DNA of 64,000 nt from positions 36,642,001 through 36,706,000 of the forward strand of contig JBITNC010000002.1 in the NCBI GenBank assembly GCA_050084985.1, given 5' to 3'. How positions within the stretch are numbered: position 1 is the stretch's first letter; each line of letters starts with the position of its first letter. The position numbers and the translations under genes were made by a program. The stretch comes from Nageia nagi. Its lineage: Eukaryota; Plantae; Pinophyta. Under the pieces are notes generated by a model that had not been told where the DNA came from, searched no databases, and worked only from the letters and a program-made list of their open reading frames with translations. Of this stretch, positions 4,401 through 56,832 are shown in pieces.

Positions 4401-4470
4401 TTTGTCAACACAACTTATTCTCAACAATAGAGCTCCTTACTAAGTCCTTCGCATGAGAGCTCCACTAGTA

Positions 4471-7400
4471 TTTTTTTTAATAGATTGAAGGTGGAATTTT
4501 GAAGATCCCAAACATTTTAGAAAATGTTTAAAGATAGTTCACGTAGTGATATTGAAATACCAAAACATGTCTTTCCTACTAAATCATTGATATACCTACT
4601 CGATATATATACATTATACTAGAACATAGGAATTGTGTTTATCCAAAACTTGCCATTATTTCGGATTCTTGGTCAACTCCTCCGTGAGCGTTGCAATTGC
4701 TTGGATTTGCATTTTTACCTCTATCATTGTTTGCATCTTCAACTTTTCAAATTATTCTACCGAGTCCAAGAGCTCCAAGCTAGTACCAAATGCTTTGTCG
4801 AAAGAACTTTGTCCCTTGACTTCACCCACCCAAATGGTTGCTTTCTTATCCCCTCTTCTTGGTTCTTGACCGTTTCATCTCTAACTTTGAACTTTGTGAC
4901 TTCATCTCCTCTTGTTGTGCCCCATCATCCACATCTTCTGATATCAACATAAGACTTTGTGGTCTTCTTCCTCAATTTGTATCTTCTTGTCACCTTGTGA
5001 TCTTGGTCTCCTTTTGGCTCATGCTTCTCTTCCTAAACCGATTCATCCTGAAAATCTGCATCCATCACACTATTGTCCTCTTCCTAAATCGGTTCATCCT
5101 AGCGGTTTGCATCCATGGTAAAAGTATCCTTTGCCTCCGAAAGAGGATGGTTGAGACTCTCTTCTCTTCTTCCTTCGCCCCTTTTTCCTAGTTCTTAATG
5201 CAATTGTTCCCTCTTGGGTCCAACTTTTGTCGCTCCTCTACTCTAACACATGCTTGAAGATGACCAAGACCAAACCATGGTGTATTGCGTACACTATATT
5301 TCCTTTACTAACCAACTCCATTGCTCTATCCAATTCATGCATCAGGAAATTAGGGACATTCACCTTCTTCCCCTAGTGTATATCATTGAGGATTACAAAG
5401 TGCTAACCATAAACTCATGACCAGTTCATGTTTGGAGTGAAGTAATTCATCATAGTGGTTGCACTTTTCAACCAAGTATGAAACAAGAATTCTCTCACAA
5501 TCCCTTTATTTTCCCACCTAGGTTCTCCCCTCGTTGGAAGAAGATTTTGATTTCCACCACCAACAAATGTTTCTCTCATTTAATCTTCTCTTGAGTTCGA
5601 CATGCTGGTAATCTACTGAAGTAGCTTCATGTCAACGTCAAATTCAATGCCACAAACTTTGACCCTTCCCCCTCCTAATAAGAACTATAATGGAAGACTT
5701 GCAGGTAAGGGCGTGGAATCAACTACTCCCTCCGAATTTGGCTATATTCACAACTCTTTTGTTCACTTCTTGGAGGATCTACTCCATTCTCAACATGGCA
5801 ATATGTTTGGCAAGCTTAAAGGTGTCTAAATATTGACTTGGGGACCCCATGTGTCCCATCACTATGCACCAACTCTGAATCTACTGCAAATTTGACATCC
5901 CAAATGAGACTGGTGTTGAAATCATTCCTTCCTCATGTGCATGTTGCTCCATCTTGTTCTTTGTCTCGTGACACACCTAAGCCATCACAATTCCTCTTAC
6001 GTGATATGATTTGGTGAAGTGCCTCATACCAAGCTCTTTCCCCATGAAACTTTGTGCCATTGCTCATAATCATTCCCAATGTGATAGGTTGATTTATCCC
6101 AACTCTCCCCTTTTGAAATGCCAATAAAACCTATCAACCAGGAATTTCTTATCCCCTCATTATTGTCTCTCTAAAGTCTTGATATTGTCATCATGGGTAA
6201 TGCTCTGGATGCTTTGAGGACAATCCTCCTCCCACATGGTAAGATCTCTACTTAGAACTCCTTTGTTAGCCATACCATTAGTTACCCTATATTTGTGTTG
6301 TACCACAATAGTTTCTAATCCATTCAACACGGTTTGTCTACTCCATTAATGTCTCAATACTCTAGCCAGCCAATCGTTCCCCCTTTAGAATATTAATTAT
6401 GTTCTTAAGAAGTCCCCTTCACTCATTATATTCTCCCAATTCTTCTACATAATGAGAGAAATCCCTCTATATGTTGTCCTTGCCCCAATAAAGTGACTAG
6501 TCTTCTCCCCCAACAACTCTACGAAGGCTAGTACTATATTACCAAGGTGACCTTTGACCAATCCCTAGCACCAACCTGCTTTGAATTTCCTTAAGGCTTC
6601 ATCAAAATTGAGCTTGAGCCAACCTACTAGAGGTGATTCCCACTACACTTGGTTCCTAGAATGTTTTCTAAACCATGTGAGAGAATGAACTACACCCCTC
6701 TCTCCATCACCCTCCTTTCTTAGTTTGACTCCCATCCTCCTTTGAATTTTATTACGTTAAAGTTTTTCATGAGGTTGCTCACTCTCTCCCATACTATGGT
6801 TCAAACTCCAATTTGTTGTTTCTAAAAATACAATGGTTTCTTTCCTTCCATATTCCCTGTAGAACATGTGGGAAACTCATTTTCCAAAGTTTTGTTAACC
6901 TTTTGCTTTTGAGAGGGGCTTCCCATTGGAGACTCAGGTCAAGCATTGTTCTAGGAAGGGTCAATGAGACTTGAAATTTTTGTAATACCTGGAACGAAAT
7001 ATTCTTGGCAAAGGAGCATTTTAGAAACATATGGTTTACACTTTCTTCTTGACTTTCACACAAGGCACACCTATTGGGAACGTTAAACCCTCGTTTCTTG
7101 AGGTTGGCAAGAGTAAAATTTTTATTTTGGACAACCAATGAATGGAAGATAGAGATCTTTGCTAAGATGTCTTTCTCCTAGATTTTGTTTGCTTGAGGCC
7201 ATCTTCTTCCCTCCCCTTAAATTACTTCGTAACTAAAAATGACTGCATAGCCCCCATTCTTACTCTAAAAACCAGATGAACGAGTCCTCTGGGCTCAATG
7301 GGCTTAGAAAACATGCTTTCAAATTTCTATTAAGATTGTCCAGGTGGTTTCTAACCTTGCAGTTCAAACCTTCTACTTGCAAAGATTTACATACTCTTCT

Positions 7401-8242
7401 ATTGTTGACCTTTGTTAAGTAGTGTTGGATAAGCTCACCATACAAAGGTTCTAGCAAATATCTCAGAACGTAGGAATTTCACAAAGAGGCTTGTCAAAGA
7501 GCCATTTATTTGACCAAAATCTTACCTTTGATCCATCTCCAATCTGCCATCTTGTTCCATTCTCAAGAGTGTTCTTCACTACTTGGAGGTTGTTCCAGAA
7601 ATAAGAACCCCTAGAGGGGTTATTGATTTCCGTGAAGGATGAGTCTCTTTAAGTATTTAGGTTTAAAAATATGCAACCAAGGGAGGTCTTCTTCCTTAAC
7701 CAGTTTCCATCCAAAATTCCCCCTTAAAACAAAATTCATTCTTCTAAGTTTTTGGAAACCAAGCCCCCCAACTTCTTTCCTAGAGCAACATTTGTCCCAA
7801 GCCACCAGGGCAATCTTCCGTTTCTCCTTTATCCCTGCCCAAAGAAAAGATCTCTGAATCTGTTCAATTTTCCTGCACACTGCCGTTGGTGCCGTTGGCA
7901 TTTTGAAAACGGACATAAAATAGATGGGTATGCTTTAAAGAAAGAATTCTAGCAATTGCACCTTCCCAGCTAGACCGAGAAGTGCTCCTTTCTAAGAAGA
8001 AAATTTTTTAGCAATTCCCTCTATCGCTGAATTCCAGAACTCTTTTTTTTATTCTAACTCTGAAAGGAAGCATACTCACGTAAAATGCCGAGAAATCCCC
8101 TATTCCACAATTGAAGATTCATGCTAGCTGGACTTGGAGAGTTAAGGGAGTATTCAATAAGTACAATATACTCTTATTAAAATTAATCCTTCTGCCCTGC
8201 CGCTTTCTCATACAAGTCCAGAATCTCTTTGATATGTTTAAC
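4471..8242 (-). mobile_element. 5'-truncated, degraded L1-clade LINE (end of RT, zf-RVT, RNase H) with an extra 3' ORF
   Basis: Minus-strand fragments: KEILDLYEKAAGQ.INFNKS; RSFLWAG...VAWDKCC..KEVGGLG; NRCALCESQEESVNHMFLKC..IWKERN; WESPLVGWLKLNFD (RNase H, about 6600). T8 run at 4471-4478 is the likely poly(A) tail. No TSD found. Confidence 0.85.
4656..5859 (-). pseudogene. Degraded extra ORF ('ORF3') of the first LINE
   Basis: Manual translation: GRVKVCGIEFDVD...KGIVREFLFHTW...MMNYFT...HFVILN...KVNVPNFL...HHGLVLVIF, an acidic tract, TRRYKLRKK, and a coiled-coil-like end at TAA 4658-4656. Collinear with the ORF at 33981-32228. Confidence 0.7.
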
Positions 8243-8966
8243 CTGCAAAAAAAAAAGCAAATGGAACTTTACGTCTATTAGAGATAAATGACAAGACCCC
8301 GCTGTTTTTTTTTCTCTTGCAATGGATCAAAAATGTTTCAGTATTCATAGAGAATCAACACAACCGCAATTTTCTGAAAATATGGACCCCATTCAACTGT
8401 TATAGTGTGAAGCCAATGTTTGAATTAATGGTTGGCATTTCTTCTCAAAGTCCAAAAGAAAATTGAACACCAATTTCGTTTCTTTTTCTTGCTTCAGATG
8501 GATTTTAGGTTCCTTAAAATCACTTTATCCTTTTTTTCAAAGTCATATTCCGATGAAGTTCCTCACTTTCATTTGTCATGCATGTATAACATGAATCACA
8601 CTTCCATTTAACAGAAACAACAAAATTCAAATTGACAAGACTGCTGGTATTGACAATATTCTCTGTTCTTGATATTTACATGTATATAAACATTGCAAAA
8701 CGTGCAAGTTAAGATCTTGTTACAAAAAAATCGTTCACATTTTATAACATTCGACTTGGATAAACTTTAAACTGATAATAGTAAAGCACAAATAAATACA
8801 TGCTGGAGAAAATGCCAAGGATCTAAGTTCTTCTCAGGATACATTACCTAGATGTTAGATTGCACCCATAGATATTCATTATAAACGCTATCAAATTTCA
8901 CTCAACACATGGTGTACTTGTAGTTAAAATAACTATAGATTACAAAAGAGTTACAATATGAGAGGC

Positions 8967-9322
8967 CTAATTCCTTGAATAATTTTTGGAAACTTCTGCT
9001 TCAGCTTCATCAAGTTCATCTTCATCCATTACTATAGTATCATCAGAATCTGCATCACTCTTAGAAGCATCAACCTCCTTGCTCCTATGTAGTGCTCCTG
9101 AAGATTGGTTATCAGAACCTGTTTGATCCTTTTTTTGTTTTGCTGGAGCACTTTTCTCAAGTTTTCAAATTCAATTTCATAGAGTTTTCGAAAAGCATGG
9201 GCCCTCTTACACAGCTCGTCTCTTGATATTGTTTGTGAACCCTTTCTGGAATCTTCTAGTGCCGCGATTTCTGTAACTACTCGAGGAATGAATTCCCAAT
9301 TATCAAGCACAGTATGAACAGA
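8967..9322 (-). CDS. XRCC1: XRCC1 last coding exon, with an apparent 1-nt frameshift
   Basis: ctgcag|TCT gives SVHTVLDNWEFIPRVV. The conserved acidic tail DSDDTIVMDEDELDEA...TAG (8969-8967) is in the -1 frame; the unshifted frame stops at 9032. Confidence 0.85.
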
Positions 9323-9462
9323 CTGCAGTATATCACAAGTATGAGTATTATGAAAAAAAATTACAACATTGAATTTGATACAAATGTATATTCTCAAAGC
9401 CCCAAAAGCATAAACAAAGACTTAGATCTGCATATTATTCTCCAGTAGAAATAAGAGCCCAC

Positions 9463-9549
9463 CTTATTCTCCTCCAAACATTTTGTTGTGTCCTCCAAAC
9501 AAGCTTCGATACCCTGAATAGCTATTTCCTTCAGTTCACTTGGCTCAGG
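9463..9549 (-). CDS. XRCC1: XRCC1 exon following the 41.7-kb intron
   Basis: tttcag|CCT...AAG|gtgggc, 87 nt. PEPSELKEIAIQGIEACLEDTTKCLEENK continues the plant XRCC1 pattern PEPxEIKxIAAEGILTCLQDAI. Confidence 0.9.
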
Positions 9550-11007
9550 CTGAAATCATTGCAAAGGCAATGTATTACTTATTGAATGGTATCTCATTTT
9601 TATTCTTATCTCTATATCCTCAATTATTGTTTCGACTCTCTTATCCATAACAAAATCTTTGCCTCGTGGTTTGAAGAATTCAAGCAAGAAATGTCATTGA
9701 ATTCTAATAATAATATAGCCAGTCCAATGATTATACATGTATCAGCGCATTTGCGACAATTAGATACTCTATATCACAAATCAAACAGCAAGCAAAACAC
9801 TTCTGATGGAATTAATAAGAAGGTGCATCTTAAATAGTCACATCAAAAACAAAATCCAAAGCAAAAAGACTAAAACATTTCAAATGTCACCAATATCAAG
9901 CAACAAAGCCAACATGTAATCAATATCAAGCAACAAAATAAAACCAGAAGCACAAAACAAGATCTAAAAAAAAACTACAAAAGCAGCATAAAAAGGAAAA
10001 CATATCTCAACTAGCATCACAGGCAAGACGTGTGCCTGATATGTAACCCCCCAGTGGCTATCAGTATTTAGACTCTTTTTAAGTACAAGAGATCTATTGT
10101 AAAGCATAATGCTCAATGTTAATGCAGTGACAAACGTTGAAGGCGCCAACATTGAATGCTAGCTAATGTGGTCCACCTCACTGTATGTGCTTAAATAATT
10201 AAGCCTATAAACATAAAATCTATTCATGTAATGGGAGGAGGATCTCAGAAAATAAAAGTTAGAAAGTTACTGATGAACAATGGGTTGCCAACAATAATTG
10301 CATCATTTACCTTTCAATGATAAATCACTTTGTGGCAGCTTTCATTTACGCTTAAATTTATGAACATTTTCAAATAAATTATAAAACAATAAATATATCA
10401 TTCACCTTTCCTATGTTCAAAGACCAATATTCCACCTATCTCCACCAGTCTTCGATTCAAGAATCACCTAGCCACTTGTGCCTAACATGTTTATGCGACA
10501 ACTTGACCACATCATCCTAAATTTAAGGATGTTGAAAGTTTGAAACAACTTCCAATTTTCTCTCATAAATATATCTTCCACCATATGCCATACACCTAAG
10601 ATGCTGCATCTAGTTATTTATCAGCTACAACCAAGTCAAATCACATTAACGTATAGTCATAATGGTACTAGCAAATGAGATGATTATAATCATTCTTAAT
10701 TGCAAGAGTCGCTGTGTTTCTACAACGAGTCACTTTATTACTAAACGACAAGTGTTTGCTTAAAACGCCTCTCCTACAGAATTTTTCTTTTAGATTATAG
10801 ATCAGCAACAATATCACAAGGAAACTCTCTCCCTACACATGCAAGGGAAGAAAGAAACTAGGCTAGAGCATCAAAGGTTGATGATTCAAAATCTTTTCAC
10901 AATCACACAAACTTAGGTTTTACATATAGAGGCAAGTTGGTTTAAAATACCTCAGATACACAAAGCTAAATGGTGAACTATTTCTATCTATAAAAAGGGG
11001 GAAGAGA

Positions 11008-12886: not shown

Positions 12887-13540
12887 CCAAGATATCCTCT
12901 ATAACGGAAGATAATTGTGAATTTCCACCCGCGCAACTATAGAATATTGGGCCATGGCATGAACTTCAAAGTGCAATATCGCCTTCGTCTCTTGATGGAA
13001 CCCCATTGTGTAACCTATCAAAACATTTGGTGTGAGATGCTCTATCCATTTTAGAAGATGAATTATCAATTCATGGCTTATGGCGCAAGTTATGTAATAA
13101 AATATGTTTTTCTGTAATTTCCCATTTTGGAATATTACAAGGCAAGTGTTTAAGAGTAGCATCCTAAGAACCAGCAACCTGAAAGAAAAAGCTCACTCTT
13201 AAGATTGCCCTATTATTAACAATTATTTAGGATTTTTCTTAAATGTTGTAGCAAATCCTTATTTAATAAAGAAGGCAGCATGGCTCAATTGAACAAAGTG
13301 TTTACCTTATTATAATTTACAATAACCTTCGAGCGCTTAAATAATAATATACAGGTAGGGCAATTGATAATAGTGAGGCATTGCTTCATATCCTTGTTCT
13401 CTTTCCTATTTTTAGGACTGGATCTTTACTGGCATTATACATGGGGGGCCCAAGACAAAGCGCCAATGTAACTTCACTAAACAACCACTAGTTTTAAAAA
13501 GCTCCAATAGTTCCTACCCACACCTAGTAGGCTTATTCAT

Positions 13541-14587
13541 TGTAATGTCCCACATCCTTTTTGCAATGTAAATAAATAAATTTTAATGCTTTTAGTATTA
13601 TGAGTCATCTTTAGCAGTTAATGGTATTTTGGGGAAGATAATTTTATGCTAGCAAAGCCACCTTGACAGTCAAAGTAAGTGTTAGAGGTGTTCCAAGTGG
13701 CAAGTTGGTGTCTTAGCTACCTTTAATGGAAAAGTCAGCCTAGTGGGCAGTTACAAATGAGCTATAATGCATGCTGGGCAGTTACAAATCAGAAATAATG
13801 CATGCTGGGCAGTTACAAATCAGAAATAATGCATGCTGGGCAGTTACAAATCAGACATAATGTCTTCTGGGCAGTTACAAGTCAGAAATAGGGGTTTTTG
13901 TGTTAAATATGTTTAATCTATTATTAGCACTCTAAGTTGATCTCAGCCATTAGATCTTGCAGAGATCAATGGTCAAGATTAGCTGTCTTTTGGGAACCTA
14001 AGCATAAAATAGAGAGGTTTTTTCAATGAGGGGGGGGTTGGCTAATTCGGGGGAATTTGGGGAATTTGGGAGAGCTTTGCTCTTTGGACTCTTGCATTCT
14101 GCTAGAGTTTTCTGGGATTCCCATTGGAAACCAATCCAATGGAGGCTTAAGGGATTAGATCCTAAGGGCTTTCTACCCATTTGAGGACAGGTCTATCCAA
14201 GATCTGTATTTGAGCCTGCATGTTTGAAGTTTCAAGAGTTGAGATAACAGTTTTGGCATCACATCAGTTTGCTGGGGATTTTGAGGAGTTCATTTGGGGC
14301 TGCATGTACCAGAACAGCAGTAGTGATTACATCAGTGCTAAATCACTAGTCCTGTACAGGTTCATTATCATTTTGAAGGTGTTACAACTGTTCTTCCAGT
14401 TTGTTGAGGTGTGTTCAGTGATCTGTAGGAACTTTCATTACATATAAGTGTAATACATTGTCTACATTGTCTCTAATATGTTGTAGTTGCAATTTGTGTT
14501 ACTTGAAAAGAGAATAAAAATATAAAATCAGATTTGGTTCTGCTGTGTTATTGTGGATTTGCATACATTTGTATTTGGTTTGTTTCA
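13541..14587 (+). repeat. 5' LTR of the intact gypsy element
   Basis: TGTAATGTCC...TGTTTCA, repeated at +5910 bp. Confidence 0.97.
13744..13890 (+). promoter_or_regulatory. About five 31-bp tandem units in the LTR (also 19654-19800) carrying MYB-like and RY-like motifs
   Basis: Unit TGGGCAGTTACAAATCAGAAATAATGCATGC contains CAGTTA and TGCATG. The repeat is certain; its function is inferred. Confidence 0.6.
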
Positions 14588-14589
14588 AG

Positions 14590-14602
14590 TGGTATCAGAG
14601 CC
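14590..14602 (+). promoter_or_regulatory. Primer-binding site (tRNA-iMet)
   Basis: TGGTATCAGAGCC, 2 nt after the 5' LTR. Confidence 0.95.
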
Positions 14603-14631
14603 AAAAATCCTGTCATCCTGAGGGTTTGTTG

Positions 14632-17600
14632 ATGGTCCACCCTTATCAAACTAGAAGCAAGGGTAAAGCAGGGTTAGGTCAGCCAATGGAGAGAGAAGAA
14701 GAGAGGATTAAGCTAGATGATGAGGCAGAAATCTTTAGAAGAACACAAAATACTATGTTGCAAGTATTGCAGAGAATGGAGAGATCACTTCAAGATTTGT
14801 GTTCTAGAAACCAACCACAATTAGAAACTCAGATTAGTGAGGGAAATGCTCCCTTACTACAACAAAATAATGAGGGTGAAAGTTCAACCCCTGGAGTAGC
14901 TAAAATTATACCTAAACCAAATAATCCAATAGGAGAGACATCCAGGACACCCAGGATTTGGAAACCCTCTACTCCCATGTTTGTACAGCCACAAACTACT
15001 GAAGGAAGTGTAGAGATTCCAGATACAGAGTTGGCAGAACGTTGGGCAGCGTATGAAGCCATGCCTCAAGGGTTTAAAACAGCAGTAGATTTTGAGAAAT
15101 ACTTGGAGTTGAAGGGACATAAACCGGGAAGAAAAGCTCAAGGAGCAGGAGGAGAATTGCAGTACAAGTTGGGTAAGTTACCACTTCCATTTTTCGATGG
15201 TAGTGATAAGATTTCTGCAAGAGCTTGGTTACAAAAATTGCAGACATACTTTGCTCTTAAACCCACCATGACAGAAAAGGAGGCAGTTCAATATGCAGCC
15301 CTTCATCTTGAGGGTGTTGCATATCAATGGTGGCACCATGGATTGTTCACTCAAGGCCATGGAACCATTGATTCTTTTGAGGTGTTTGCAACTAAGCTGT
15401 TGGACAGGTTTGAGAGGCAAGATGAAAATGAGTTTTTCTGTGAGTTGGCCACTATCACACAAAAAGGTACAGTTGCTAGCTATATAGAGGAGTTTCAACA
15501 GATTTCAGTTATGGTCACTGATATAGCTGAAGATAGGATCATTCACCTCTTCTTGAAGGGTCTAAGTGAACCATTAAGAGGTTTAGCAAAGGCTTTCAAG
15601 CCTAAGACACTAGATGAGGCTGTTTCAACAACTTTGGACCTTGAAACTTCCACACACAGCAGTAAACCAAAATGGGGACAGCCCTCTAAGTTTGGACAGC
15701 CATCTAAATTTGGGCAAACATCCACATTTGGGACTTCTAGACCTTCCCAAACAGTTGGACAGCCAATAAACAAAACTAGTCAGATGCATAATAAGGGCTT
15801 CCAATCACATAAAAATCCAAATCAGCAAAGACCCAAGCTAGATGAGGCAACTAGGAGGGAGTTACAGCGAAAGGGTTTATGCTTTTCTTGCAAAAAACAG
15901 TGGGGGCCAGGCCACCAATGTCAAGGTAAAGGGCAAAATTACTTGGTAGAGTTTTATGTGCCAAATGAGGATGAAAAGGAACCAGAAATAGAAAAATCAG
16001 ATTCTGAAAGTGAGTATGAAGATGCAGATTTTGCAGAATTAGAACAACATGGACAACACTCTCCTAGAATAGACGAAGAAGAGGGAGTTTTGGCATCTAT
16101 CACAGGTGAGTCAAAGTTCATAACCATAAAGGTGCCAGGAAAATTAAACGATCATTCTGCTGTGATTTTAATTGATGGAGGAGCTACTCATAATTTCATA
16201 GATGAGGGTTTTGTGGCTGAAAAGAAATTGAAAACGGAAGGTTTTTCTGGTTTTGGTGTTAAGAATGGAAATGGGGAAATTACTAAGTGTGACCAAGTGG
16301 TTAAACAGGTAAAATTATGTTTTGGTAACTATTCAGTGGTGGAGGATTTTTATGTATATCCTATGATGGGAGGTATCCCTCATGCCATTTTAGGGGTACA
16401 ATGGTTATATTCATTGGGAGGCATCTATACCAACTACAAAACGTTGGAAATGAAATTTAGATGCAATGGGAAGGTGGTCACTTTGAGGGGCATAAAAGAT
16501 CGATTCCCACAACAAATTTCAGCCAACAGATTGGAAAAAATTCTGAAGAAGAAGGACATCATTTGGGGAGCCACATTTTACATGGTGAAAGGTATGCCTA
16601 CACCCCCCAAGATTGGGGTAAAATTCCATCCTGATATACAATGCATTCTAGATAGCCATAGCCCAGTTTTTGGTGATCTACCTAGTGGTCTTCCACCTAA
16701 TAGAGGTTTTGAGCATATCATTGAATTAGAACCTGATTCTAAACCGATCATGATCACACCATATAGACACCCTAAAGCTTACAAAGATGAGATTGAAAAA
16801 ACTATTCAAGAGTTACTTGCCATGGGTTATATAAGGCCTAGTTCTAGCCCTTTTGCCTCTTCTGTAGTACTAGTGAAGAAAAAAGATGGAACCTTACGCA
16901 TGTGCATAGATTATAGGGCCTTAAACAAGAAAACCATTAAAAATCGGTATCCCATTCCTAGAGTTGATGAATTGATAGATGAGTTGCATGGGGCTACCTA
17001 TTTTTCCAAGGTGGATTTAAGATCTGGATACCATCAGATTAAAATGAGGGATGAGGATGTGCACAAGACAGCCTTTAGGTGTCATTTTGGACACTTTGAG
17101 TTTTTGGTCATGCCCTTTGGTCTTACCAATGCACCTGCCACTTTCCAATCAGCCATGAATCACATTTTTAGAGATCATCTTAGAAAATTTGTGCTTGTTT
17201 TCTTTGATGATATTCTAATTTACAGCAGAGATTGGGAAAGTCATTTACAACATCTAGACACGGTTTTGATCATTTTGGAACAACAGAAATTTTTTGCAAA
17301 TATGTCCAAATGTGAATTTGGACTTTCAGAAATTTTGTATCTTGGACATATAATTAGTGCCAAGGGTGTGCATGTAGATGAGCAGAAGATTTCTGCTATA
17401 AAAAATTGGCCTACACCCACCTCTTTGTCTGAATTAAGAGGCTTTTTGGGGTTGTGCAGCTATTACAGAAGGTTTATCAAGGGGTTTTCTCAATTAGCAG
17501 CTCCTTTGACCGATTTGACCAAGAAAGGGGCATTTCAATGGGATGGAACAACAGAAAATGCATTCCAAAAATTAAAGACAGTTATGATGACATGTCCTAT

Positions 17601-19455: not shown

Positions 19456-20497
19456 TGTCCCACATCCTTTTTGCAATGTAAATAAATAAATTTTAATGCT
19501 TTTAGTATTATGAGTCATCTTTAGCAGTTAATGGTATTTTGGGGAAGATAATTTTATGCTAGCAAAGCCACCTTGACAGTCAAAGTAAGTGTTAGAGGTG
19601 TTCCAAGTGGCAAGTTGGTGTCTTAGCTACCTTTAATGGAAAAGTCAGCCTAGTGGGCAGTTACAAATGAGCTATAATGCATGCTGGGCAGTTACAAATC
19701 AGAAATAATGCATGCTGGGCAGTTACAAATCAGAAATAATGCATGCTGGGCAGTTACAAATCAGACATAATGTCTTCTGGGCAGTTACAAGTCAGAAATA
19801 GGGGTTTTTGTGTTAAATATGTTTAATCTATTATTAGCACTCTAAGTTGATCTCAGCCATTAGATCTTGCAGAGATCAATGGTCAAGATTAGCTGTCTTT
19901 TGGGAACCTAAGCATAAAATAGAGAGGTTTTTTCAATGAGGGGGGGGTTGGCTAATTCGGGGGAATTTGGGGAATTTGGGAGAGCTTTGCTCTTTGGACT
20001 CTTGCATTCTGCTAGAGTTTTCTGGGATTCCCATTGGAAACCAATCCAATGGAGGCTTAAGGGATTAGATCCTAAGGGCTTTCTACCCATTTGAGGACAG
20101 GTCTATCCAAGATCTGTATTTGAGCCTGCATGTTTGAAGTTTCAAGAGTTGAGATAACAGTTTTGGCATCACATCAGTTTGCTGGGGATTTTGAGGAGTT
20201 CATTTGGGGCTGCATGTACCAGAACAGCAGTAGTGATTACATCAGTGCTAAATCACTAGTCCTGTACAGGTTCATTATCATTTTGAAGGTGTTACAACTG
20301 TTCTTCCAGTTTGTTGAGGTGTGTTCAGTGATCTGTAGGAACTTTCATTACATATAAGTGTAATACATTGTCTACATTGTCTCTAATATGTTGTAGTTGC
20401 AATTTGTGTTACTTGAAAAGAGAATAAAAATATAAAATCAGATTTGGTTCTGCTGTGTTATTGTGGATTTGCATACATTTGTATTTGGTTTGTTTCA
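19451..20497 (+). repeat. 3' LTR of the intact gypsy element
   Basis: Copy of the 5' LTR, followed by the TSD TTCAT. Confidence 0.97.
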
Positions 20498-26583: not shown

Positions 26584-29164
26584 AAAGGGGCCTTAAATAA
26601 TTATATATAGGGAAAGTAGTTAAGGATTTCGGTGTTGCTAAGCCCCCCCCAACTAACCAACTATTAGATTAATATTGTCAGTTATTCAAACTGCTTACTT
26701 GCTCGATCCAATCATAAGAAGAACCATCTCGTACTAGCAATCTTCCTTTCCAAATAGCTAAAGAAACCTCTTGACTATCGTAACATTGCCTTATTGTAAT
26801 AGTTACTCAAACATATTAGAACTAGAGTGGAACTTTATAATGTTTTGATTCTATACTCCTATTAATTCATTAATTTATAATTAGGCTAGCCACTAGCCCT
26901 TTTGGAATAGTAGGCCTTAAATATTAATCGAAATGTGATGCCCTTTAATAATCGAGAGGGAAAAGAATGTTGAGTGTGAGCCTTACTATTTATATAGGCA
27001 TTTGGGTGGGTTTTTCTCCTGCAACAAACCATAATAAATGAATGTGTTCCATATGAATCAAGAATCTCATCCTTAAATAATAATAGTCATCAATTATATA
27101 TAACAGGATCTTATTTAAGAATAGGGAAAGGGATAAATCCTACTATATTTAAAGGGGGCAAAGTGGCAAGAAGGCAATGACAAAAAACCCACAATTATTA
27201 TATAGAAAGGGAAGTCAACCCTACTATATTTAAAGGAGATTTGAAAGCAACACCTTTTTTTTTTTAGTAAGGTAATAGCTACAAAAAATTCTAAATCACA
27301 AATGGTAAGATAGGTGCTTGCTTACCATAGTGCGAATGTTTCGGCCTCCTATATATTATTAATTAACCCCTACTATTACAACACCCCATTTTCTATATAA
27401 TCTTAGATGCTTGAGGGTTTCCCCTTACTATAACAATCATATTTGGTAGGAAAGTAGGTAGTCAATAAGGAGAGTAGAGTGTATCTACTTTTAAGGAGCT
27501 TGAACATCCCAAAAAAAACAACTATGTTAAATATTAAATAGAGATGGCTTGGTCATTTAATAGGTAGCATTGTTGTATTGGAGTGAGACCTTTCAAAGAA
27601 TATGAGAAATTTCCTTTATATAAATATACATGGCTTAAGTAACAATAGGGCTAAAAACATATATTAATTAAATCCCAATTAAGATGCTCAACTACCCTTT
27701 TCTATATAATGTCCCCCTGTATATTAATTAAAGGCTTGAGATACATCAAAGGTCTATTGACCATATCTTCACACTCCGAGCTACCATTAAGAAGGCATGC
27801 GAAGGTCTTCTAGAGTACTTTGTGGAATTTAGGAGAGCCTTTGACACTATTCAACGACACTTCTCTAGAAGCTACATACCATTAGTTTTGGGATACCTAC
27901 ATTAGAGTGATCATGAGCATAGTTATAAGGTTCGACCAAACTGTAATATGACAAACTATTCTTCATTCCAAAATTATTAGCCAATTAAGCAACAATTATG
28001 AAAATGGACAAGATTAATCATTCACACCACAAAAATACCCAATGCACAAGACAAATTGAGAGAATAATGCCACTGTCTCAATATAATGCAATGATGGAGC
28101 AAAATACAACTAATATGGTCCAAGAGGGCTAATGTCTGGCTCAAGGGACCAAATCTAGGGCACCAACACTCTCCAACTGACTCTGGATGCTAACATCTCA
28201 TTGCTAGGGCCTTCAACCCCTAGATTTGACTACAAGTTTGGATTGATCTAAGGGTTTACGTCCTCGGCCAATAGCCTAGTGAGGGCTACGCCCCTCTATG
28301 CCCTCTTCCCACTGGATTTTTGTCCGAGAGGCCCAAGAGATGGCACTGCCACTTCGAAAATAGAAGATATCAAATAATGCTTAAGATCCCTCCACAATGT
28401 TGCACCAACCAATATAAGTAGGAATCCTCCAAGGTTGGGCACTCACATGCCCCTCAAGGTGACATCATGCTTGGGCGTCTGAATTGTGCCTTGGAATCAC
28501 TCCAAACCATGCACCAAGCTTCTAATCATGTGTTGTGCCCTGGGACCCTCAATATAACGCTTAAATGCTCCTAAACTACTCTTAGGAGGGAGACGTCCCA
28601 CTAGAGGCTCACAATTGGTCCATGGGACCCATGTGTCTCCTATCCTAAGTTACATTGATATCTAATTACATATGCAATAAATAAATAAACACTCCTAATT
28701 ACAAATTCACTCCTAAAGGGGAATGTCCCATCAAGGGGATATTACATTCCTCCCCTCTCAAATTGCTTGACCCCAAGCAATACAAGACAATAGCTCAACA
28801 TTAAATCTGCAAAAACGTCTCCAATTCTTCATTGGCAACATAAAGCATCATACATGTTGTAACTAAATTCTAAAGTACCATCTTTGTCATGTTGTCTTCA
28901 TTCATCATGTCCATGTGAGCGTATATGAAATCTACTAACTCATGTATTCCCTACGTAGCTCTCATGGCTGAAGGATCAAAAACTAAAAATGCAAATGGAG
29001 TAAGGACTCCTCTCCCTTGTTGTCCAAGGAACTAGCAAATGTCCAACATATGCCAATGTTTGGCAGAAACATAGCCAATGTCAGATCTTCACTCACGCCA
29101 CTATCTTCGAACTGAACTACCATTGAATCATCCTTATCATCATTCTTGGTTGCCCATGCCATGC

Positions 29165-29923
29165 TCATCCCTTGCGCAACCCATGAAGGATGGTAAAGAG
29201 GCTATCATAACTTGGCCAAAATATGGCAGCCAACCCGTCATAAGTCAAGGAACCAGAAGTAATGAATTTGAATACTTTGCAACACCAATCACCATCAATT
29301 TCAGCCATGGTAAAGTCCCACAAATCTAACATTTCTACCATATCCTTGATGTCTCCAACCTTGTCATAGGTAATCTTAGATAAAATCATTAATGCCCTTC
29401 TTGCAAAAGCGTAGTCAACCCCCCACATCCTCCATGTAGGCCTCCGCGTAATCAATCCATGGTCTATGCTATCGTCCAGGGATACAAGTGCTGAAAGGGA
29501 ACTAGCAATGATCCTCAAAGTCTCCATGAGTGTGTCGTCCAAGCATGTACTCCGCAACCTTCCCCATGTGGACATTGAGGATGCTTCAATCCTCTCACTA
29601 TTTCTACTCCTTTCTTGAGCTCTATCATGAACAATACTCATAATATAGTTAGGAAACAAAACAAATACACTATGTAAATCATACCTCCTGCTAAGGCCCT
29701 CAAGAACAACCCATGCAACATCCAAGTGAGCCAAGGGGTGGACGAAGTGTATCAAGGTGAAGATTGGTTGCTCCAATCTCATCAATCTATCTTCTTCTAA
29801 GCCTCCCAAGGCTTGACGTCCCTCTTCCAATAGATCCTCGTCATCATGTGACTCCTCCCATATGCACCCTTCCTTGATGAGTGGGTCGTCCTCTTGCTCT
29901 AGCTGTCCAACTCCATATACCAT
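29165..29923 (-). pseudogene. Unidentified 252-codon open frame occupying the place of pol
   Basis: From the ORF track. It follows the protease linker directly and has no RT motifs. Confidence 0.4.
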
Positions 29924-32227
29924 CTCCGAATGGTTGGGGAAAGTAATCCTTAATGGCTTGTAGTGTATGCCTCTTCCCTTTTACCTCAAACTTCAACATT
30001 AACTTTTGATAATTTGAGCGAATGTCACCCAAATTATATAGCCATTGTACTCCCAAAATCAAGTGTGGAATGCCATCCAATGCGTAGACGTAGAAGTCCT
30101 CTCTCGCCACAATCTTGTATCTTCACGCCAAACTTCTCCACAATTTGATCTACCAATGTAAGCTTCCCATTGGCATTCGTCACGCGAAAGCCCTCAAACT
30201 CCTTAGTCTTAAGGAGCTACTTCTTCGCAAACTCCTCATCAATGAAATTGTGTGTGGCTCATGGGTTTATCAAAACCATTACCTCTTGGCCAACGACTAA
30301 CCCTTTCACCTTTAGCATGAAATATTTGGGTACTCCATAGAGTGACGCAATCATCCCTTCAACTATGCTCTTGTTGTCTGGAATAGGGTGTTCTAGCTGC
30401 AAACTTAATCCTCTCAAATCCAACTCCAACTCTAAATCATCATCCACCAAGATTACTTCGATGTAATGGACTTATCCCTTGCACAAACATTTGTGACCAC
30501 GCTCCCAAGTTTGCTTGCAGCTAAAGCACAAATTCTTCTTCCTTAGCTCATTCCTGGTCTCCAAACTTGCCTTGTTGTCACCTAACGTTTGGCTTCTTTC
30601 GGTAGGTGAAGGCCCCATCTCCAACATCCCCCTTCCAAATGTCCCATCTTTGGTGACAATGCGACTTTGGCTCTCATCATGCCAGGTTCTAGGTCCAACG
30701 CCCTTTTGATGGCATCCTATAGCTGTGTAGGGGAGAAGGCTTTGACTAAACCCCTCAACAGTTCTGCCAAACCTTTCGTGAAAAGGAAAGTGACCCTCTT
30801 CTCTGAAATGTTGGGATCCCTTATTGCAATCCTTTGGAATTCCGCCACATTCTCCTCCACAAACCCTTTTTTCCTCATTTTAGTCAAGTCCTTGAAGTAA
30901 TCATCTTCATCCTTTCTATCAAATCAATCCATCATCCTCCTATTGAAGACATCAAAGGAGGTGATTGCTCCATGACTCTGCGTGATCATACCATATTGCC
31001 ACCATTTCGTCTAAGGGCAAGATAGCAGACCGTATGACATCCTCCTATATCATGGGGCTAAGCGTGAAATAAGTTTGCAGTTTTTGCAACCATCCCCTAG
31101 CAGTCATCTTGTCACTTCCATCGAACAAGGGCACTTGCATCCTACTCGACCATTGTTGAAGATACCTTCTATCGTACCTGGATCCACCATGCGCTTGACT
31201 ACCACTAACTCTCTTGCCCAAAAACTCTAGATACAAAGAAAAGGTCACATCATCCTTGAACTCTTATGTGTTCAAGCCTTCAAGGCATATTCTCGGTACA
31301 ACTAATTGAGCTCCCGTGGTGAGATCATGCTCATGTTGCTCTTCATCCTTGAAAAGAACATAGGTTTGTTGGGACGTGGTAGAGGGGGAGGTGAGGCATC
31401 CATTTTCTATTTTCTTTTTTTGATTAATGGGCTAATTTTGTATTAATCAAAAAACGTGAAGTTTATAACAAAAAGGTCTATTATAGCCTTGTTACACTAC
31501 TGCTACAATCTTCTCAGATTACAAAAAGGATCTAGAAATATTGAGAACATCACCTTCTATTTAACATCCCTAAGGTACATAAAGTAGAATAGATTTAACA
31601 AAACAGACTGTTTCCATTATGTCTTCTGGAAAAAGTTCCTAAGATAACTACACACCGTCATTTTAACTGTGGTCAAAAAAGCATCATACTAAAGAGACAG
31701 GGTAACTTTTTGCTTCATCTAGCAACAAACTAACAACAGCCAAAGACTAAATCCCCTTCTACTCCATAGAAATGAACTATAGATTGTCAAAGTTGAATTT
31801 GTAGAGGTTGACATGTTTTCCTAAGCATAATTTCCTTGAAGCCCAGACTCTCCCCTACATCCTCATATTTGGCGCTTCTTGTCCCCTTCCTCGATTTTTC
31901 CTCTTCTAGCATTTCATTATGGATTTTGGAGCTAAAAGCTCTCTAAAAGAAACTAGACGTTGTTGGTTATCTCTCTTTGGGTCAGCAAACACTGCTCCTA
32001 GATTATGTTCTCCCTCTAGCAATTCGTTGGTTTGCTTGAGCTTATCCATAACCTTAGCATTCCCCTTTGTCTTTGGCAGATTTGCATACCTCTTTTGAGT
32101 TGTTTACCTATTTCCCTAATTTTGAATTGCTCAAGTGAAACCTATTCCTCCAAGTTAATGAATTGAACACGTCCACTTACTGTTGCATTCTCCTCAATAG
32201 CTTTATCATTGGTTGTTCTTCCCGAAT

Positions 32228-33981
32228 CTAATTGTGAAGACATCTCCCCCTGAGGCATTTTGATCTTCTCTTCATTTTGTCAATGCTATCTTCCAAATTT
32301 GTGCTCAACGAGATCTCCACCTGCGTGTTACTCTCCACAGGCCCCTTTCCTCTAGAGCTCCAAAGTTTGGCCTCACTCCTAGTTCTCACATGACTAGGCA
32401 TGACAGACACATTCCCTAGCTCGACTACACTCAGTTGACTAAGCTTACTCAAATTCTTTGAATGCTCTAAGGAATCCTCTGAAGAAGACTTATACCTATA
32501 GAAGCATAAAAATGTGCTATCTCCTCAAAATAATCTATAGGATTCTTTAGAGAACCCTTACCTGATAAGACCGGTTTCCTTATCTCCTCCTTAGAGATCT
32601 CCAATTGCTCGTCTTCCCCTTCCATGGGTCCATGTAAGTTTTGTACTTGTTCAACAAGGTTTTGCTCTGGGATCAAAATATCTTCCTCATCTAGAAACTC
32701 AGTCTCTACATGAGAAATCTTTGCAATTCCCCTATGGTCCTTTCCACTCTCCTCAAGTCCTTCCCTTGAATTCTTTGATTGCAACATTAACTTCCTTTTG
32801 AGTCTATTGCTTCTTCTTGGCCTGGTTATCATCTCCCTCTCATCCACAAGCGCTAGCTCTCCCATTTCTTTGTTAAGAGTACATTTGACTCAAACCATTT
32901 GTTGGCCCTTCTTATATAATACTTCTTTTGTTTTGTTGCAATCTCCCTACTCCTCTTACCTTTAAGGCTACTTCTTTCGCCTTTTGCTTCCTACTTTGTG
33001 TTCATTCTCAATAGGGTGTCTACTGCCTCTGCTTCTTGAGATTCACGTAAAGAAAGATCATCATCCTTGGATTGGCTCAACAAGTTGTGGTTTGTGCTTT
33101 CAAATTCAGCTCTCTCTAGCTCCAATTCCAAGCCGTTAAAAGGAGCTCAATCAACTTTACATTTTTGTCTTGTGAGATAAACTCTACCCCTCTCCAATTT
33201 ACCCCCTGATTGTGGATCATCAGGAGCTGGATTAGACAACTTCTTGATCGACCCAGCTCTCCTCTTATTGCTTGTTGATGGTTCCCCCTCTTCCGTCTTT
33301 TTACCTGGCTCAAAGACCTGACCACCAACTAGAACTTTCACCTTAGGAAATTTCTTAGGTGAAAGAGCAATTACCCTCTCATAGAGGAGTTTGATTATAG
33401 CGCCATGCAAGGGCACCAAAGCCCTATTCTTTTTCACTTTGTCAACCAAGAGAGACAAGGAATTAAAGATGAAAAATGGGAAATTCACCTTGTTTGTTTC
33501 TAGGAAAATGAAGTGATTGAGCATGAAAAAGTGGGATGCCAACAAAATTTTGTATCTTCCCTCCAGAGTCACGTACCTGATTAGAACAAAGGTGACACCA
33601 TCCCATGGCTTGGCGATAGATTCCCTACCCACTCCCGTTTGATACTTCTCCAAGTCCTTTGTCTTTAACACTTTTTTCTAGATATTTATTCCTGGCATTC
33701 AATTTGTTGAGCTTCCCTTCTCTTCAAACTTGAATGCCCTTGTTTGGCATAAGAATTACATGTGCAGTTGTCTAAAGGCTAAAAATTAGGCTCCTGCCAT
33801 TTACTTTGCATCAACCATTCACCCACGAGCTTGCCACCTCCATAGATAGCTGATCATCATGGCCCTTGCATGCCTACATGAAATTATCTAAATCCCCCTA
33901 ACAAATGATATTCCACACCACCTTGTTGCTAATTGTTTCATCAGGAGAGGACGATTCCACTCTCACTAAATCCCCTCCCAT
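32228..33981 (-). pseudogene. Degraded extra ORF ('ORF3') of the second LINE
   Basis: Starts ATG GGA GGG (MGGDLVRVE...), continues GVGRESIAKPWDGV...RYVTLEGRY...HFFMLNHF..KVNFPFFIFNSL...LHGAIIKLLY, then a charged tail with PRRSNRLKRK and RTRS. The 3' end is approximate. Confidence 0.75.
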
Positions 33982-34514
33982 GTTCTCGGTCACCTCCAAC
34001 ACCTACAAAACACAACACTCTGAAGCTCTCGACCACCTTCAGCTCCATTGTAGCTTTTAATGAGCAAAAAATTGTTTTAATAAACCACAAATCTGGGCTT
34101 CCCAATTCCAACGCACCATCTTTCCTACCTCAATAAGTCATCATTACACCTCAAATGACTATCTCAATGCCCTGGCCACCTCAACTTCCTCCTCCGCAAG
34201 ACCGGACACTGCAATCATGCGGACTCATGACAAGAAATATTAAATTAAATATGGGACTAATTAGCCTGTAATTGAAAACAATAAAGAAATAGTGATAAGA
34301 CTTTTCCCTTTCTATTAATAAGGCAAGGGATATTAATTCTGAAGCAATCCACGCGACAAGGCGGTGCCTAAAATGGCCCACCTTCACCTTTGAGTCAACC
34401 AAAACACCACACAATCGAAGAGCCTAGTCAAACCAACCTGGTAACTAAGCCGCCACAAAAACCTTAATGGAGACAATTAATCAAAAATTAAATTTGCTAC
34501 CAATCCAAAGAGGC

Positions 34515-37473
34515 TTATAAGCAAAGATTCGAATTTTTTGAGGGCACCTCCATATCTTCCCCATCCTCTACCTTGTTCTGCCTTTTCTTAGTTTTACTCT
34601 TTTCTCTTACACAAGTCACATAATTTTCCTTAGCTCTTACAGAAGCTATTTTGTAGACCTCAATGGGTTTTTTAGCTTTCCCATTGAAGGTTCTCTCATT
34701 TCTTTCTTTCCAAATTTGCCAAAGGGTGTGAGTTAGCATAAAGTACCAAGCTTTCCCCACATACTGATTGCCTTTTATTGATTGCCATTGCACAATCCAA
34801 AATAAAATCCCTTCTGGAAGGGCTCCACTAATATTGAATTTTCTTTTGATTTCATACCATATTTCTGTAGCAAAGGTCCAATGTAAAAAAATATGGTTTT
34901 CAGATTCTTCCTGTTTTTGGCACAAACAGCATCTATTTGGGATTGTCATCCCTCTCATCTTCAAATTGTCAATTGTGGCAAGCTTATTATGGGCCAAAAT
35001 CCACATAAAGAAAGCAATCTTTGGCATGAGGCCATTAGTCCAAATCTCCTTCTCTTCGTTCTTTTGACCATTTTTGAGCAGATTTATAGCATCTTCGATA
35101 TTGAAATCCCCTTTTTTTGATACAATCCAAACAGGCTTGTCTCTTTCCTCTCCAGCTATAATTCCACTTACCTCAATTTCTTCTAAGAGATTGGAAACTT
35201 CGTTTTTCGCTTCCACTTGAGGATGTTCCAGAAAGTGCCACTTGTCCTCTTGTTTAGAGTAGTAATCTCTTAGCATTTCTGCTTGTCTAGTTTTAAACCA
35301 CGAAACTCCTTTTCATAGACTTCTAAAGGATATCAACGGCTTGCCTTCGATCCAGTGATCCTCCCAGAAGTATATATTACTCCCATTCCCAATTTCCCAT
35401 TTCACTTGCTTTCCAATCCAGTTCCTGAGTTTAATGATACTATTCCAAAAGGGCAAGCCATAAGGAGGATTTGCTACCCTCAAGAAGTGGTTTCTATTGT
35501 TAAGATATTTGGCTTTACAGACCTTAATTCGCTCTCTATCCTCCTTTACAGCCATTTTCCAGGCCATCTTAGCTCTTAGAGCTACATTCAAGTGCTTCAT
35601 TCTTCTCAAAACAAGACCTCCCCGAGTCTTTTCTCTTCTCTACATAGCTTATTCCAGGCCACAAGTGAGGACTTTTTTCTTTCTCCATCATTGTCCCAAA
35701 GGAACTTTCTGCATACTTTATCAATTTTACTTGCAATAGAGTTTGGCATATTAAAGACAAGCATGTTGTAAATGGGAATACTTTGAAGCATCTGTTTTAT
35801 AAGATGGGTTCTTGCTACATAAGTTAAGGTTTTCCCTTTCCATCCTGGTAGTTTAGAGTTAATACTACGCAGAACCCTTTCCCATTGGTCTATGGTAACC
35901 CTTCCTGAGAAAAGAGACATGCCCAGGTATCTAGTAGGGAGTTGATCAATCATATAGCCAAAGATGCCTGCAATGTTTCTTTGTTTGCTTCTAGGAGTAT
36001 TCAAGAAGAAGATTCTAGTTTTTTCGATGCTGATAAATTGATGGGAAGCTCTTTCATAGTCTCTTAGGATCCTTTCAAGGTTTTAGCCTCCCTTTACTGA
36101 GCAATCCCAACTAAGATTGTATCGTCAACAAACTGATGGTGGGAGATGGCCGAAGTCTGTTTTGCTTGTTTAATTCCTTTGATCCTACCATTCGTTTGTT
36201 TTTTCTTGATTGCTTTGCCCAAAGCTACCGCTATTAAAATAAAAAGATAGGGTGAAATCGGGTCCCCCTATCTGAGACCTCTTTCTACACCCAAATAACC
36301 CCCTAGCTCACCATTAATAATCATTGAATATCTAGGAGTAGAGCTTCATTCTCTAATCCAATTCCTCCATAGCTGTCCAAAACCAAATCTACTTAGAATC
36401 GCCTCCAAGAAATCCCAATTAACCCTATCATAGGCCTTCTTCATATCCAGTTTGAGAAGCATTGTTTCTTCTTTCCTCTCCTTCATTAAGTGAAGCATTT
36501 CAGGCTTCAAAATGATACCATCTATAATGAGCTTTCCGCTCACAAAACCATCTTGTTCTTTTGAGATCATTGTTGGTAAAAGTTGCTTCATTCTTTTTGA
36601 TAAGATTTTGGTGATTATTTTGTAAGTCACATTACACAAACTGATAGGTCTAAAATCCTTCAGGTCCTTTAGCACTCCTTTTCGAGGCCAAAACCAAAAA
36701 AGTAGCATTCCAGGTTTTCAGAAGCTTTCCTTTCTTAAAAAAATCTACTCTGCTTCCACTACATTCGGGCCTACAATCTCCCAATTGGCTTCGAAGAAGC
36801 CTTCCTGAAAACCATCCGGTCCTAGTGCTTTGTCTTTTTGCATAGAGAATAAAGCTTTTTTGACTTCTTCTTTATAAGTTCTTTTAGTTAAATCTTCATT
36901 CATTTCCTATGTGATAACCTCTGGTATGTTTTGCTACATGCGTTCAGTGGTTGATTTATTTATTCGTTGATCAATTTCCAAGATCTTGTAGTAGGTCTCT
37001 GCTTCTTCCTTTATCTCATCTTCCTCTTGGGTAACAGTTCCATCCCCTTTCCTAATTTTTGATATTTCTATCAACACTCCTGCTTTGGAAAGTGGACATT
37101 TTAAAAAATGTGGTATTTCTGTCACCATCTTTCAACCATGTAATTCTAGATTTCTGTTGCCAATGTTTTTCTTCCTGAGATAAAGTATTATAATATTCAG
37201 CAAGGACTTCTCTATCTTTCTTGTCTAGATCTTTTGTTCTACCTTTTCTTAACATTTCAAGCTCTATCATTTCCAGCTCCCCTTCCATCTCTAGCTTCCT
37301 CTACTCAACATTCCTAAAAATTTCCTTGTTCCATTTCTTGACTCTCCTCTTGACTTTGCCCATTTTTTGTGAGAGCCTATACATTGTTGTTCCTTTGACC
37401 TCATATTTCCACCAATCTAGATTCTCTTTAAAACTTGGATGATCCACCCACATAAATTCAAACTTAAAAGGTG
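34515..37473 (-). pseudogene. LINE ORF2 (post-endonuclease linker, RT, zf-RVT), frameshifted
   Basis: PFKFEFMW; WQQKSRITWLKDGDRNTTFF; DFRPISLCNVTYKIITKIL; LKLDMKKAYDRVNW; SHHQFVDDT; RCCLCQKQEESENHIF..IWKERN. Confidence 0.92.
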
Positions 37474-39779
37474 TCCATTTTTTGTGTCTCTCCATGAATT
37501 TCTCCCACATTGGCTCTCTGAACCTAGTGGATTCAGTTCTAAACAAGGAATGTCCTTCGTCCATCATTCTAGCTGACAAGGACCTCTGAAATACAAGCTC
37601 TCTCCACTCAAATCCTTGACTTTCTTGGTTCTACCCTAACCCTCTGGATCTATGCAAAAACTCCTACTCTCCATGATCTCTCTCACAGGATCTATGCAAA
37701 GGTGCATCACCTCATGGCTCCCTTTCACAAACAAAGGCAAATCTCTGAGTATGGGGCATTCTAGGGCTTCCTCCAGGCCCTACGTTCCTCTCCTACGCCT
37801 CTCTTCTGGCCACACACTCATTCAATTGCTGCATTTGATCCACAATAGTTTTCATCATGGCCAACAACTCATCAAACTACTTCTCTGCTAGATCCTTGGG
37901 CGAAATTTCCTTTTCCTCATGCACATCTTCCTCATCTCCAAGCACATGCCTTGGCTCATTCATCCGGCTTTGTCGGACTAGATCTCCATGCTACCTCCCT
38001 GTGTCCTCCTTGGATTTGGTCTGAGGGGCCATGGGAGACTTCTTTCCCTTATGCCTCTGGTAAACCCTCTTTGCTGACTGCATCCAACAATATTCCCACA
38101 AGATGGCAAGATGATAGCTCTAATACTACTGTAATATAACAAACTACTTTTCGTTCCGAAGTATTAACCAATTAAGCGACAATTATAAAAATGGACAAGA
38201 TTAATCATTCACACCACAAAAATACCCAACGCACAAGCCAAATTGAGAGAATAATGCCAACATCTCAATATAATGCAATGATGGAGCAAAATACAACCAA
38301 TATGGCCTAAGAGGGCTGATGTTTGGCTCAAGGGACCAGATCTAAGGCACCAACACTCTCCAACTGACTTTGGATGTTGATGTCTCACTACTAGGGCCTT
38401 CAACTCCCGAATCTTTGGTTTGAGGGTTTGCATCCTCAGCCAATAGCCTAGTGAGGGTATGTCCCACTATGCTCTTCCCATGCTGGGTTTTCGTCCAACA
38501 AGAGGCCAAAGAGATGGCACTGCCACTTCAAAGATAGAAAATATCAAATAATGCTCAAGATCCCTCCACAATGTTGCACCATCCATGTAAGTAGGAATCC
38601 TCCAAGGTTGGGCGCTCACATGCCCCTCAAGGTGACGTCATGCTTGGGTGTCTAAATTGTGCCTCGAAATCACTCCAAACCATGCGCCATGCTTTTAATC
38701 ATGTGTTGTGCCTTGGGATCCTCAATATGACACTTAAATGCTCCTAAACTACTCTTAGGAGGGAGACGTCCCACTAGGGGCTCACAATTGGTCCATGGGA
38801 CCCACATGTCTCCTATCCTAAGTTACAATGATGTCTAATTACATATGGAATAAATAAATAAACACTCCTAATTACAAATTCACTCCTAAAGGGGAACCTC
38901 CCATAAAGGGAACATTACAATGAACCTAACCTAGGTTTGGCCAAACTGAATTTCCTCGACAAAACAAACTTGTAGGGTTCAATTCGGTCAGATTTGCAAC
39001 AGAAAATGTGGGAAAATTTGTATGGAATGTACAAGGGCCACAAAAACTAAAATCCCTCCAAAAACACGATGTGAAACCCTAAAAACATGAAATGGTTAAT
39101 AGTGAAGACGAGATGTGAAATAGCCAAACCATGACATGAAATAGCCAATATGCAACATGAAGTTGTGAATGACTAAATGCGACATGAATGCTTGCAAGTC
39201 TATGGTCACATATTCTCTTGGCTCTTGTAGCCTTGTTATAAACTCATAGAAAACATGATAGGTCACATGTTTTGTGCAGGCGTCATGCAGAGAACTCACC
39301 GTTGCCCATCTCCTGTCACCCATCCCAGTTTATGCGTGCAGTGCATCCCGTCTCCTGTTCGCTACATATATATAAGGTTCTAAAGTTTAATGTTTTTATT
39401 AAATTTTTATTTATAGCTTAATTTTTAAAATATAAATGTTTTTTGTTTATATTTAAAATATAATGTTTCTATTTATAGTTTAATCATTAATGTTTATTTA
39501 TAGTTTTTTATTTATAATTTAATATTTTATTTAATGTGTATATTTTCAAAGTTTAATTTTTAAAGTTTATATTTAAAACTTTATGTTTTTATTTAATGTT
39601 TATTTAACATTTTCATTATGTTTAAATTATAAATCTTTGATGTATTGAATTATATGTAGTTATTTATATGTTTTGTATATTTTCCAAACCCTTTTCAAAA
39701 TTCCAAACTTCCAAACTTTTTTTGTCTTTTGATCGAACTGAATCTGGTAACTATTGAGGCTCTATGGAACAATTATTGG

Positions 39780-47926: not shown

Positions 47927-47964
<38 letters not shown>

Positions 47965-47965
47965 T
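47927..47965. repeat. (ATC/ATT)n microsatellite
   Basis: atcattatcattatcattattattattattattattatt. Confidence 0.9.
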
Positions 47966-56830: not shown

Positions 56831-56832
56831 TA

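Follow-up and report, generated by a model that had tools for sequence, protein, structure and literature searches.

A third gene related to Ty3/Gypsy 3' extra ORFs stands behind ORF2 in two diverged, probably L1-type, LINEs from Nageia nagi

Long interspersed nuclear elements (LINEs) have been described as elements with one or two open reading frames (ORFs), and a stretch of Nageia nagi DNA (GCA_050084985.1, contig JBITNC010000002.1, positions 36,642,001–36,706,000; referred to here as the window, 64,000 nucleotides in length, 36% GC and retroelement-rich) raises the question of whether some of them carry a third. Two LINEs lie on the minus strand of the window, LINE A (site A, ~8293–4471) and LINE B (site B, 37468–31411), and in each the remnant of a further sense-strand ORF, ORF3, is found behind ORF2. 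A first-pass annotation of the window had proposed that the two ORF3s are homologous and represent an old, stably inherited gene rather than a chance transduction. Our analysis indicates that the feature is real, and that it is modelled best as an L1-type LINE with a third gene which is related to those of long terminal repeat (LTR) elements and has a predicted VANC fold. We are fairly confident that ORF3 is an integral and inherited gene of these LINEs (see Table 1 for coordinates).

The fourteen short peptide motifs first quoted as collinear between the two ORFs are all present on the minus strand and in the order given, with six of the seven site A motifs in one frame (5669–5256) and the last, TRRYKLRKK, in another. 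The homology of ORF3 from LINE A (~1.2 kb) and LINE B (~2.1 kb) was borne out by a frameshift-aware alignment scoring 92, compared with 43 ± 6 for shuffled sequences (maximum 72 in 40 base shuffles). The two cores scored 86 compared with 35 ± 5, a value reached by none of 60 codon shuffles and well above the maximum of 59 among 174 real tiles of the window, and share 21% identity across 135 columns. Between the tails there is no significant similarity (40 compared with 43 ± 5), and the proposed match of TRRYKLRKK to PRRSNRLKRK is therefore unsupported as homology. The LINE A tail also includes a 51-nt tandem duplication (71% alike) at 5027–5128. The LINE B remnant is present as proposed, with the frames suggesting that it probably ends at ~31900 rather than at 32228.

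Table 1. Features of the two LINEs and their surroundings (window coordinates).
Feature	Position	Strand	Basis or remarks
ORF3 remnant of LINE A	4656..5859	-	Stops and frameshifts; core ~5230–5672, then basic/acidic tail; profile, HHalign, relatives
ORF3 remnant of LINE B	31906..33981	-	ATG at 33981, core to ~33330, long tail, 3' end approximate; profile, relatives, frames
ORF2 of LINE A	6160..8293	-	5'-truncated and decayed (reverse transcriptase end, thumb, zf-RVT, RNase H-like tail); zf-RVT and similarity to LINE B
RNase H-like segment of LINE A ORF2	6163..6642	-	Several stops; presumed from short motifs only
ORF2–ORF3 spacer of LINE A	5860..6159	-	~300 nt, without LTR or integrase remnant
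Candidate poly(A) tail of LINE A	4471..4478	-	A8 run (T8 on the plus strand)
ORF2 of LINE B	34515..37468	-	5'-truncated just past the endonuclease region; reverse transcriptase and zf-RVT; Pfam scan
A-rich tail of LINE B	31411..31421	-	A7-G-A3
Target-site duplication candidate of LINE B, 5' copy (17 bp)	37469..37485	-	Adjoins the first LINE codons
Target-site duplication candidate of LINE B, 3' copy	31394..31410	-	Directly behind the A-tail
Old Ty3/Gypsy host of LINE B	27940..38919	-	LTRs 38128–38919 and 27940–28746, 88% identical

Relatives of ORF3 show the same homology. The longest open piece of LINE B ORF3 (33150–33677) finds 184 proteins at E ≤ 0.001, and in tblastn 63 of the 150 listed among these match site A at E < 0.01, the best with 5e-13. 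We also built a profile from 130 relatives, with no row taken from the window, and this matches site A with 88 bits (E 8e-27, 5672–5172) and LINE B ORF3 with 73 and 148 bits, the latter partly by construction as the search was seeded from LINE B; apart from these two sites it has no match in the window below E 0.88. HHalign of site A returned 98.9% over 155 columns. The named relatives are gene models of Ginkgo biloba and Taxus chinensis. In two of the Ginkgo models (P0059 and P0093) the ORF is joined to a PPR-DYW protein or to the N-terminal piece of a dioxygenase, and these fusions could reflect faulty gene prediction or elements that inserted into genes.

The elements ahead of ORF3 are likely to be L1-type LINEs, a label which rests on zf-RVT and on short sequence motifs. 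The Pfam scan found zf-RVT in LINE A (E 3e-14, 6797–7177) and both RVT_1 (E 1e-19) and zf-RVT (E 2e-21) in LINE B. PFKFEFMW at 37471 marks the 5' side of LINE B ORF2, and CHLSLIDV at 8293 in LINE A resembles the HQFVDD of LINE B when compared by eye. Both copies are 5'-truncated, on the side where an L1-clade LINE would have its N-terminal apurinic/apyrimidinic (AP) endonuclease and ORF1, and both are now dead. The ORF2 pieces are 35–44% identical with a homologous thumb region, and at the DNA level there is almost no similarity beyond a best match of 56 bp at 75%, in agreement with the earlier view of two independent LINEs. ORF3 stands directly behind ORF2 in both of them; its description as lying behind RNase H holds less well, as no RNase H is recognisable in LINE B, and in LINE A we take the segment to be RNase H-like from short motifs only (WLKLNFD at 6621, EGDFL for EGD at 6420 and HKYRVTNGMAN for H.YR..N at 6297), a label that could not be confirmed by any significant match in Pfam, PDB sequences or the Tat-type RNase H (aRH). 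Just upstream of LINE A, a decayed coding-like remnant with an acidic stretch is found at 8967–9700 (minus strand), the longest piece of which has no Pfam match.

Evidence that ORF3 moved with its LINE comes from LINE B. This element splits the gag of an older Ty3/Gypsy host, whose gag–protease resumes at 31260–29934 and whose gag frame runs on across the insertion site for 16 more codons. The two copies of the duplication candidate are identical at 13 of 17 positions with all four differences being transitions, which would fit the decay of methylated CG and CHG sites; across both strands of the window no other match of at least 13 has transitions alone, and an equally high score was reached in 3 of 300 random zones. 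Because LINE B is nested in the Gypsy gag and the duplication candidate encloses ORF2, ORF3 and the tail, these three parts are likely to have been inserted together as a single unit. Within the host, past the protease region and ahead of the 3' LTR, there is also a 271-codon open frame without a Pfam match (29165–29980, minus strand), and with no reverse transcriptase (RT) or integrase detected around it the host looks non-autonomous.

Only two LINE ORF2 3' ends were found in the window, and each is followed by a same-strand ORF3 within 0.3–0.5 kb, a placement for which we obtain a rough chance figure of 9e-5 if random. We noted no internal A-tail separating ORF2 from ORF3, and at neither site did we find long direct or LTR-like repeats inside or Tat-type pol matches nearby. 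An L1 3' transduction would likewise place extra sequence between ORF2 and the A-tail and inside the duplication; in contrast to such an event, the same gene family is found here in the same place in two LINEs with strongly diverged ORF2s.

The first-pass annotation had missed that ORF3 can be traced: by sequence it belongs with the extra ORFs that Ty3/Gypsy elements carry at their 3' side, and its predicted fold is VANC/PMD-like. We scanned 16 of 64 parts of a metagenome collection with a degenerate pattern of a conserved motif, which returned 65 loci (~500 estimated). All 65 read TC[ED]G where LINE B and the Ginkgo proteins read TLEG and belong to an LTR-type clade only, and a LINE ORF2 match directly upstream was found in none of them. 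Among the 25 loci with at least 2 kb upstream, nine have Gypsy RT, RNase H or integrase on the same strand (one in mixed orientation and one at 7 kb), one has gag, one has a self-hit alone, and in 14 nothing was recognised; the Gypsy integrase usually ends 1.3–2.8 kb ahead of the motif. In L017 and L038 an additional RNase H precedes the RT and a sense 3' extra ORF of the ORF3 family follows (L001 is likewise Tat-type, with an additional RNase H ahead of the RT). This arrangement is the TatII layout according to PMC6317226, and PMC4408406 has lineages I and II appearing without extra ORFs, such as those which L017 and L038 carry. One locus (L031) was considered as a further LINE with ORF3, having a LINE-like fragment ~4.4 kb upstream; its ORF is placed with the LTR type, the intervening DNA seems to contain decayed pol-like motifs (by eye, with Pfam silent), and the locus was not counted. 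Searches of viral contigs and genome contigs returned no ORF3 relatives, none of 160 proteins compared matched the LINE ORF2 or tail frames of the window, and a search for longer gene models found no fused ORF2–ORF3 models, which is weak evidence.

We constructed an unrooted tree from 227 sequences, of which 135 had enough coverage and were thinned at 62% identity to 82 rows. This placed both ORF3s in a 40-row clade (support 100/98) with the Ginkgo and Taxus proteins and apart from all rows with an LTR context; genomic context within this clade was read for A and B, both of which come from this window. The two are not sisters inside the clade. Placing LINE B ORF3 with the LTR-type clade was rejected (p 8e-9), and LINE A ORF3 prefers the profile of its own clade over the LTR-type profile (83 compared with 66 bits). 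As the tree is unrooted, we infer an LTR-to-LINE direction of transfer from how widespread ORFs of this kind are among Gypsy elements.

For LINE A two results are less favourable: it lacks a convincing target-site duplication (the weak candidate, 8297–8315 and 4460–4478, is not significant), and the approximately unbiased (AU) test allows its ORF3, a long branch, to be placed with the LTR-type clade (p 0.27). The first, together with the long branch and the weak evidence offered by an A8 run in AT-rich DNA (the T8 tail originally described is there), could be accommodated if 4471–6100 were a separate decayed LTR-element fragment lying behind LINE A by chance. We regard this as very improbable, since no LTR-like or terminal inverted repeats that would give this segment its own ends were found and no pol remnant, it lies on the same strand behind a 300-nt spacer, an arrangement like that of LINE B, where insertion as a unit is supported, and LINE A ORF3 prefers the profile without LTR context. 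Because of the AU result and the long branch, we also considered that A and B each acquired an ORF of this LTR-derived family independently, in two capture or 3' transduction events, with a convergent layout. The abundance of the family, the low identity of the two ORF3s and their non-sister positions, and the differences in RNase H and ORF3 length between the LINEs would all be in keeping with this; we nevertheless think it improbable, as both ORF3s share one clade apart from all LTR-context rows and begin so close behind ORF2 without an integrase or LTR remnant, whereas in Gypsy elements integrase usually stops 1.3–2.8 kb short of the motif. An old carried gene is thus favoured over chance transduction by the position behind ORF2, the movement of LINE B as a unit and the common clade, with the AU result leaving the case for LINE A less firm.

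The predicted ORF3 product has a helical core of ~200 residues followed by a low-confidence basic tail, and the fold predicted for the family may be that of VANC21, as it matches residues 300–533 of that protein over 193 of 205 residues at 5–10% identity. A scan of 92 relatives and locus ORFs gave no Pfam match to DUF1985 or PMD, and searches with the family gave no PDB sequence relative and no viral fold match. Likeness to Transposase_32 (PF20167) and ATHILA (PF03078) reached 22.5 bits at best (relative P0054; 17.5 bits for L049) compared with a gathering cut-off of 45, the ORF3 pieces of the window have no match to either in Pfam, and Atlas scores of 0.89 and 0.86 are leads only. An env-like membrane protein would be expected to have a transmembrane helix, and none is predicted in eight of nine relatives (19-residue hydropathy maxima 0.67–1.47); the ninth has a maximum of 1.89, in a stretch that is predicted upstream of the conserved start, and by sequence the family does not look env-like.

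From the model, the ORF3 product would likely bind the DNA or chromatin of its own element and counter silencing, as VANC and PMD-C proteins are reported to do. The main alternative is a different role for an integral ORF3, in integration targeting or within the LINE particle as a scaffold or a chaperone for nucleic acids. We think this possible but less likely: among structural relatives the only one found with a solved structure is an anti-silencing protein bound to DNA, and the PMD-C relatives are also described as silencing antagonists. We suggest that a single capture, from a Tat/Athila-type Ty3/Gypsy element with such a 3' extra ORF, likely gave rise to ORF3. It would be contained in the LINE RNA, where target-primed reverse transcription from the A-tail would copy it first; ORF3 would then survive 5' truncation because it is copied first. 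The product may be translated from a separate sub-genomic RNA or through re-initiation, and would pass into the nucleus, recognise motifs of the LINE that encodes it and hold off repressive marks. (A candidate splice acceptor 24 nt before the LINE B ATG was dismissed, as 20% of random pieces score equally and 28 relatives show no enrichment.) Taken as a whole, an integral ORF3 of an old gymnosperm L1-type lineage, captured from Gypsy and with a VANC-like anti-silencing role, is a reading for which we consider the chances about even.

Plant L1-clade LINEs have an ORF2 with RT and zf-RVT, often together with RNase H (RVT_3). The two LINEs here resemble them in zf-RVT and in being 5'-truncated, and LINE B does so also in RVT_1, in its A-tail and in the 17-bp candidate duplication; they differ from them in the third sense ORF of 1.2–2.1 kb between ORF2 and the tail. 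RT plus RNase H is described in plant L1 in PMC5203782, and the term 'ORF3' does not occur in the available text of that paper or of PMC11288735; the literature searched yielded no account of an ORF3 of this kind in a plant LINE (Repbase, most subscription journals and supplements were outside its scope). With the 3' extra ORFs of Ty3/Gypsy OTA elements (Athila ORF-1, Transposase_32, and the PMD PF10536 of Tat/Ogre), ORF3 shares a protein family with ORFs behind Gypsy pol, the 3' sense position and the weak leads given above, but it has a non-LTR carrier, a separate clade (TLEG rather than TCEG) and scores below the Pfam cut-off. Further close systems are VANC21 (DUF1985) of VANDAL21 and the PMD-C proteins MAIN and MAIL1. 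From the prediction ORF3 may share the fold of VANC21, and it is likewise an accessory gene borne by a transposon; unlike VANC21, to which it has no sequence-level match, ORF3 is found in retroelements of gymnosperm-like DNA and is known from sequence and predicted fold. VANC is called dicot-specific in an earlier account.

Elsewhere in the window, a very young and apparently intact chromovirus-type Ty3/Gypsy element is found at 13540–20497 (plus strand), with two identical 1048-bp LTRs and a single stop-free frame of 1645 codons encoding gag, protease, RT, RNase H, integrase and a chromodomain. Dispersed old repeats, 65–86% identical, occur at 24877–26136 and 47434–48700, and at 44100–45800, 49100–50400 and 56800–60100; one pair is inverted and several have short internal repeats.

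If true, the acquisition of a conserved third LINE gene from a different retroelement class would be an unusual event. The VANC fold predicted for it suggests a function that can be tested, for ORF3 as well as for the 3' extra ORFs of Gypsy elements, which have long lacked an explanation. More tentatively, an ancient and widespread gymnosperm LINE lineage may have taken an LTR gene as a VANC-like, sequence-specific anti-silencing factor, the first in a non-LTR retrotransposon, and the 'env-like' ORFs of Athila/Transposase_32 would then belong to one PMD/VANC superfamily common to DNA transposons, LTR elements and LINEs. Such a gene would bear on how retroelements persist in the heavily methylated genomes of gymnosperms.
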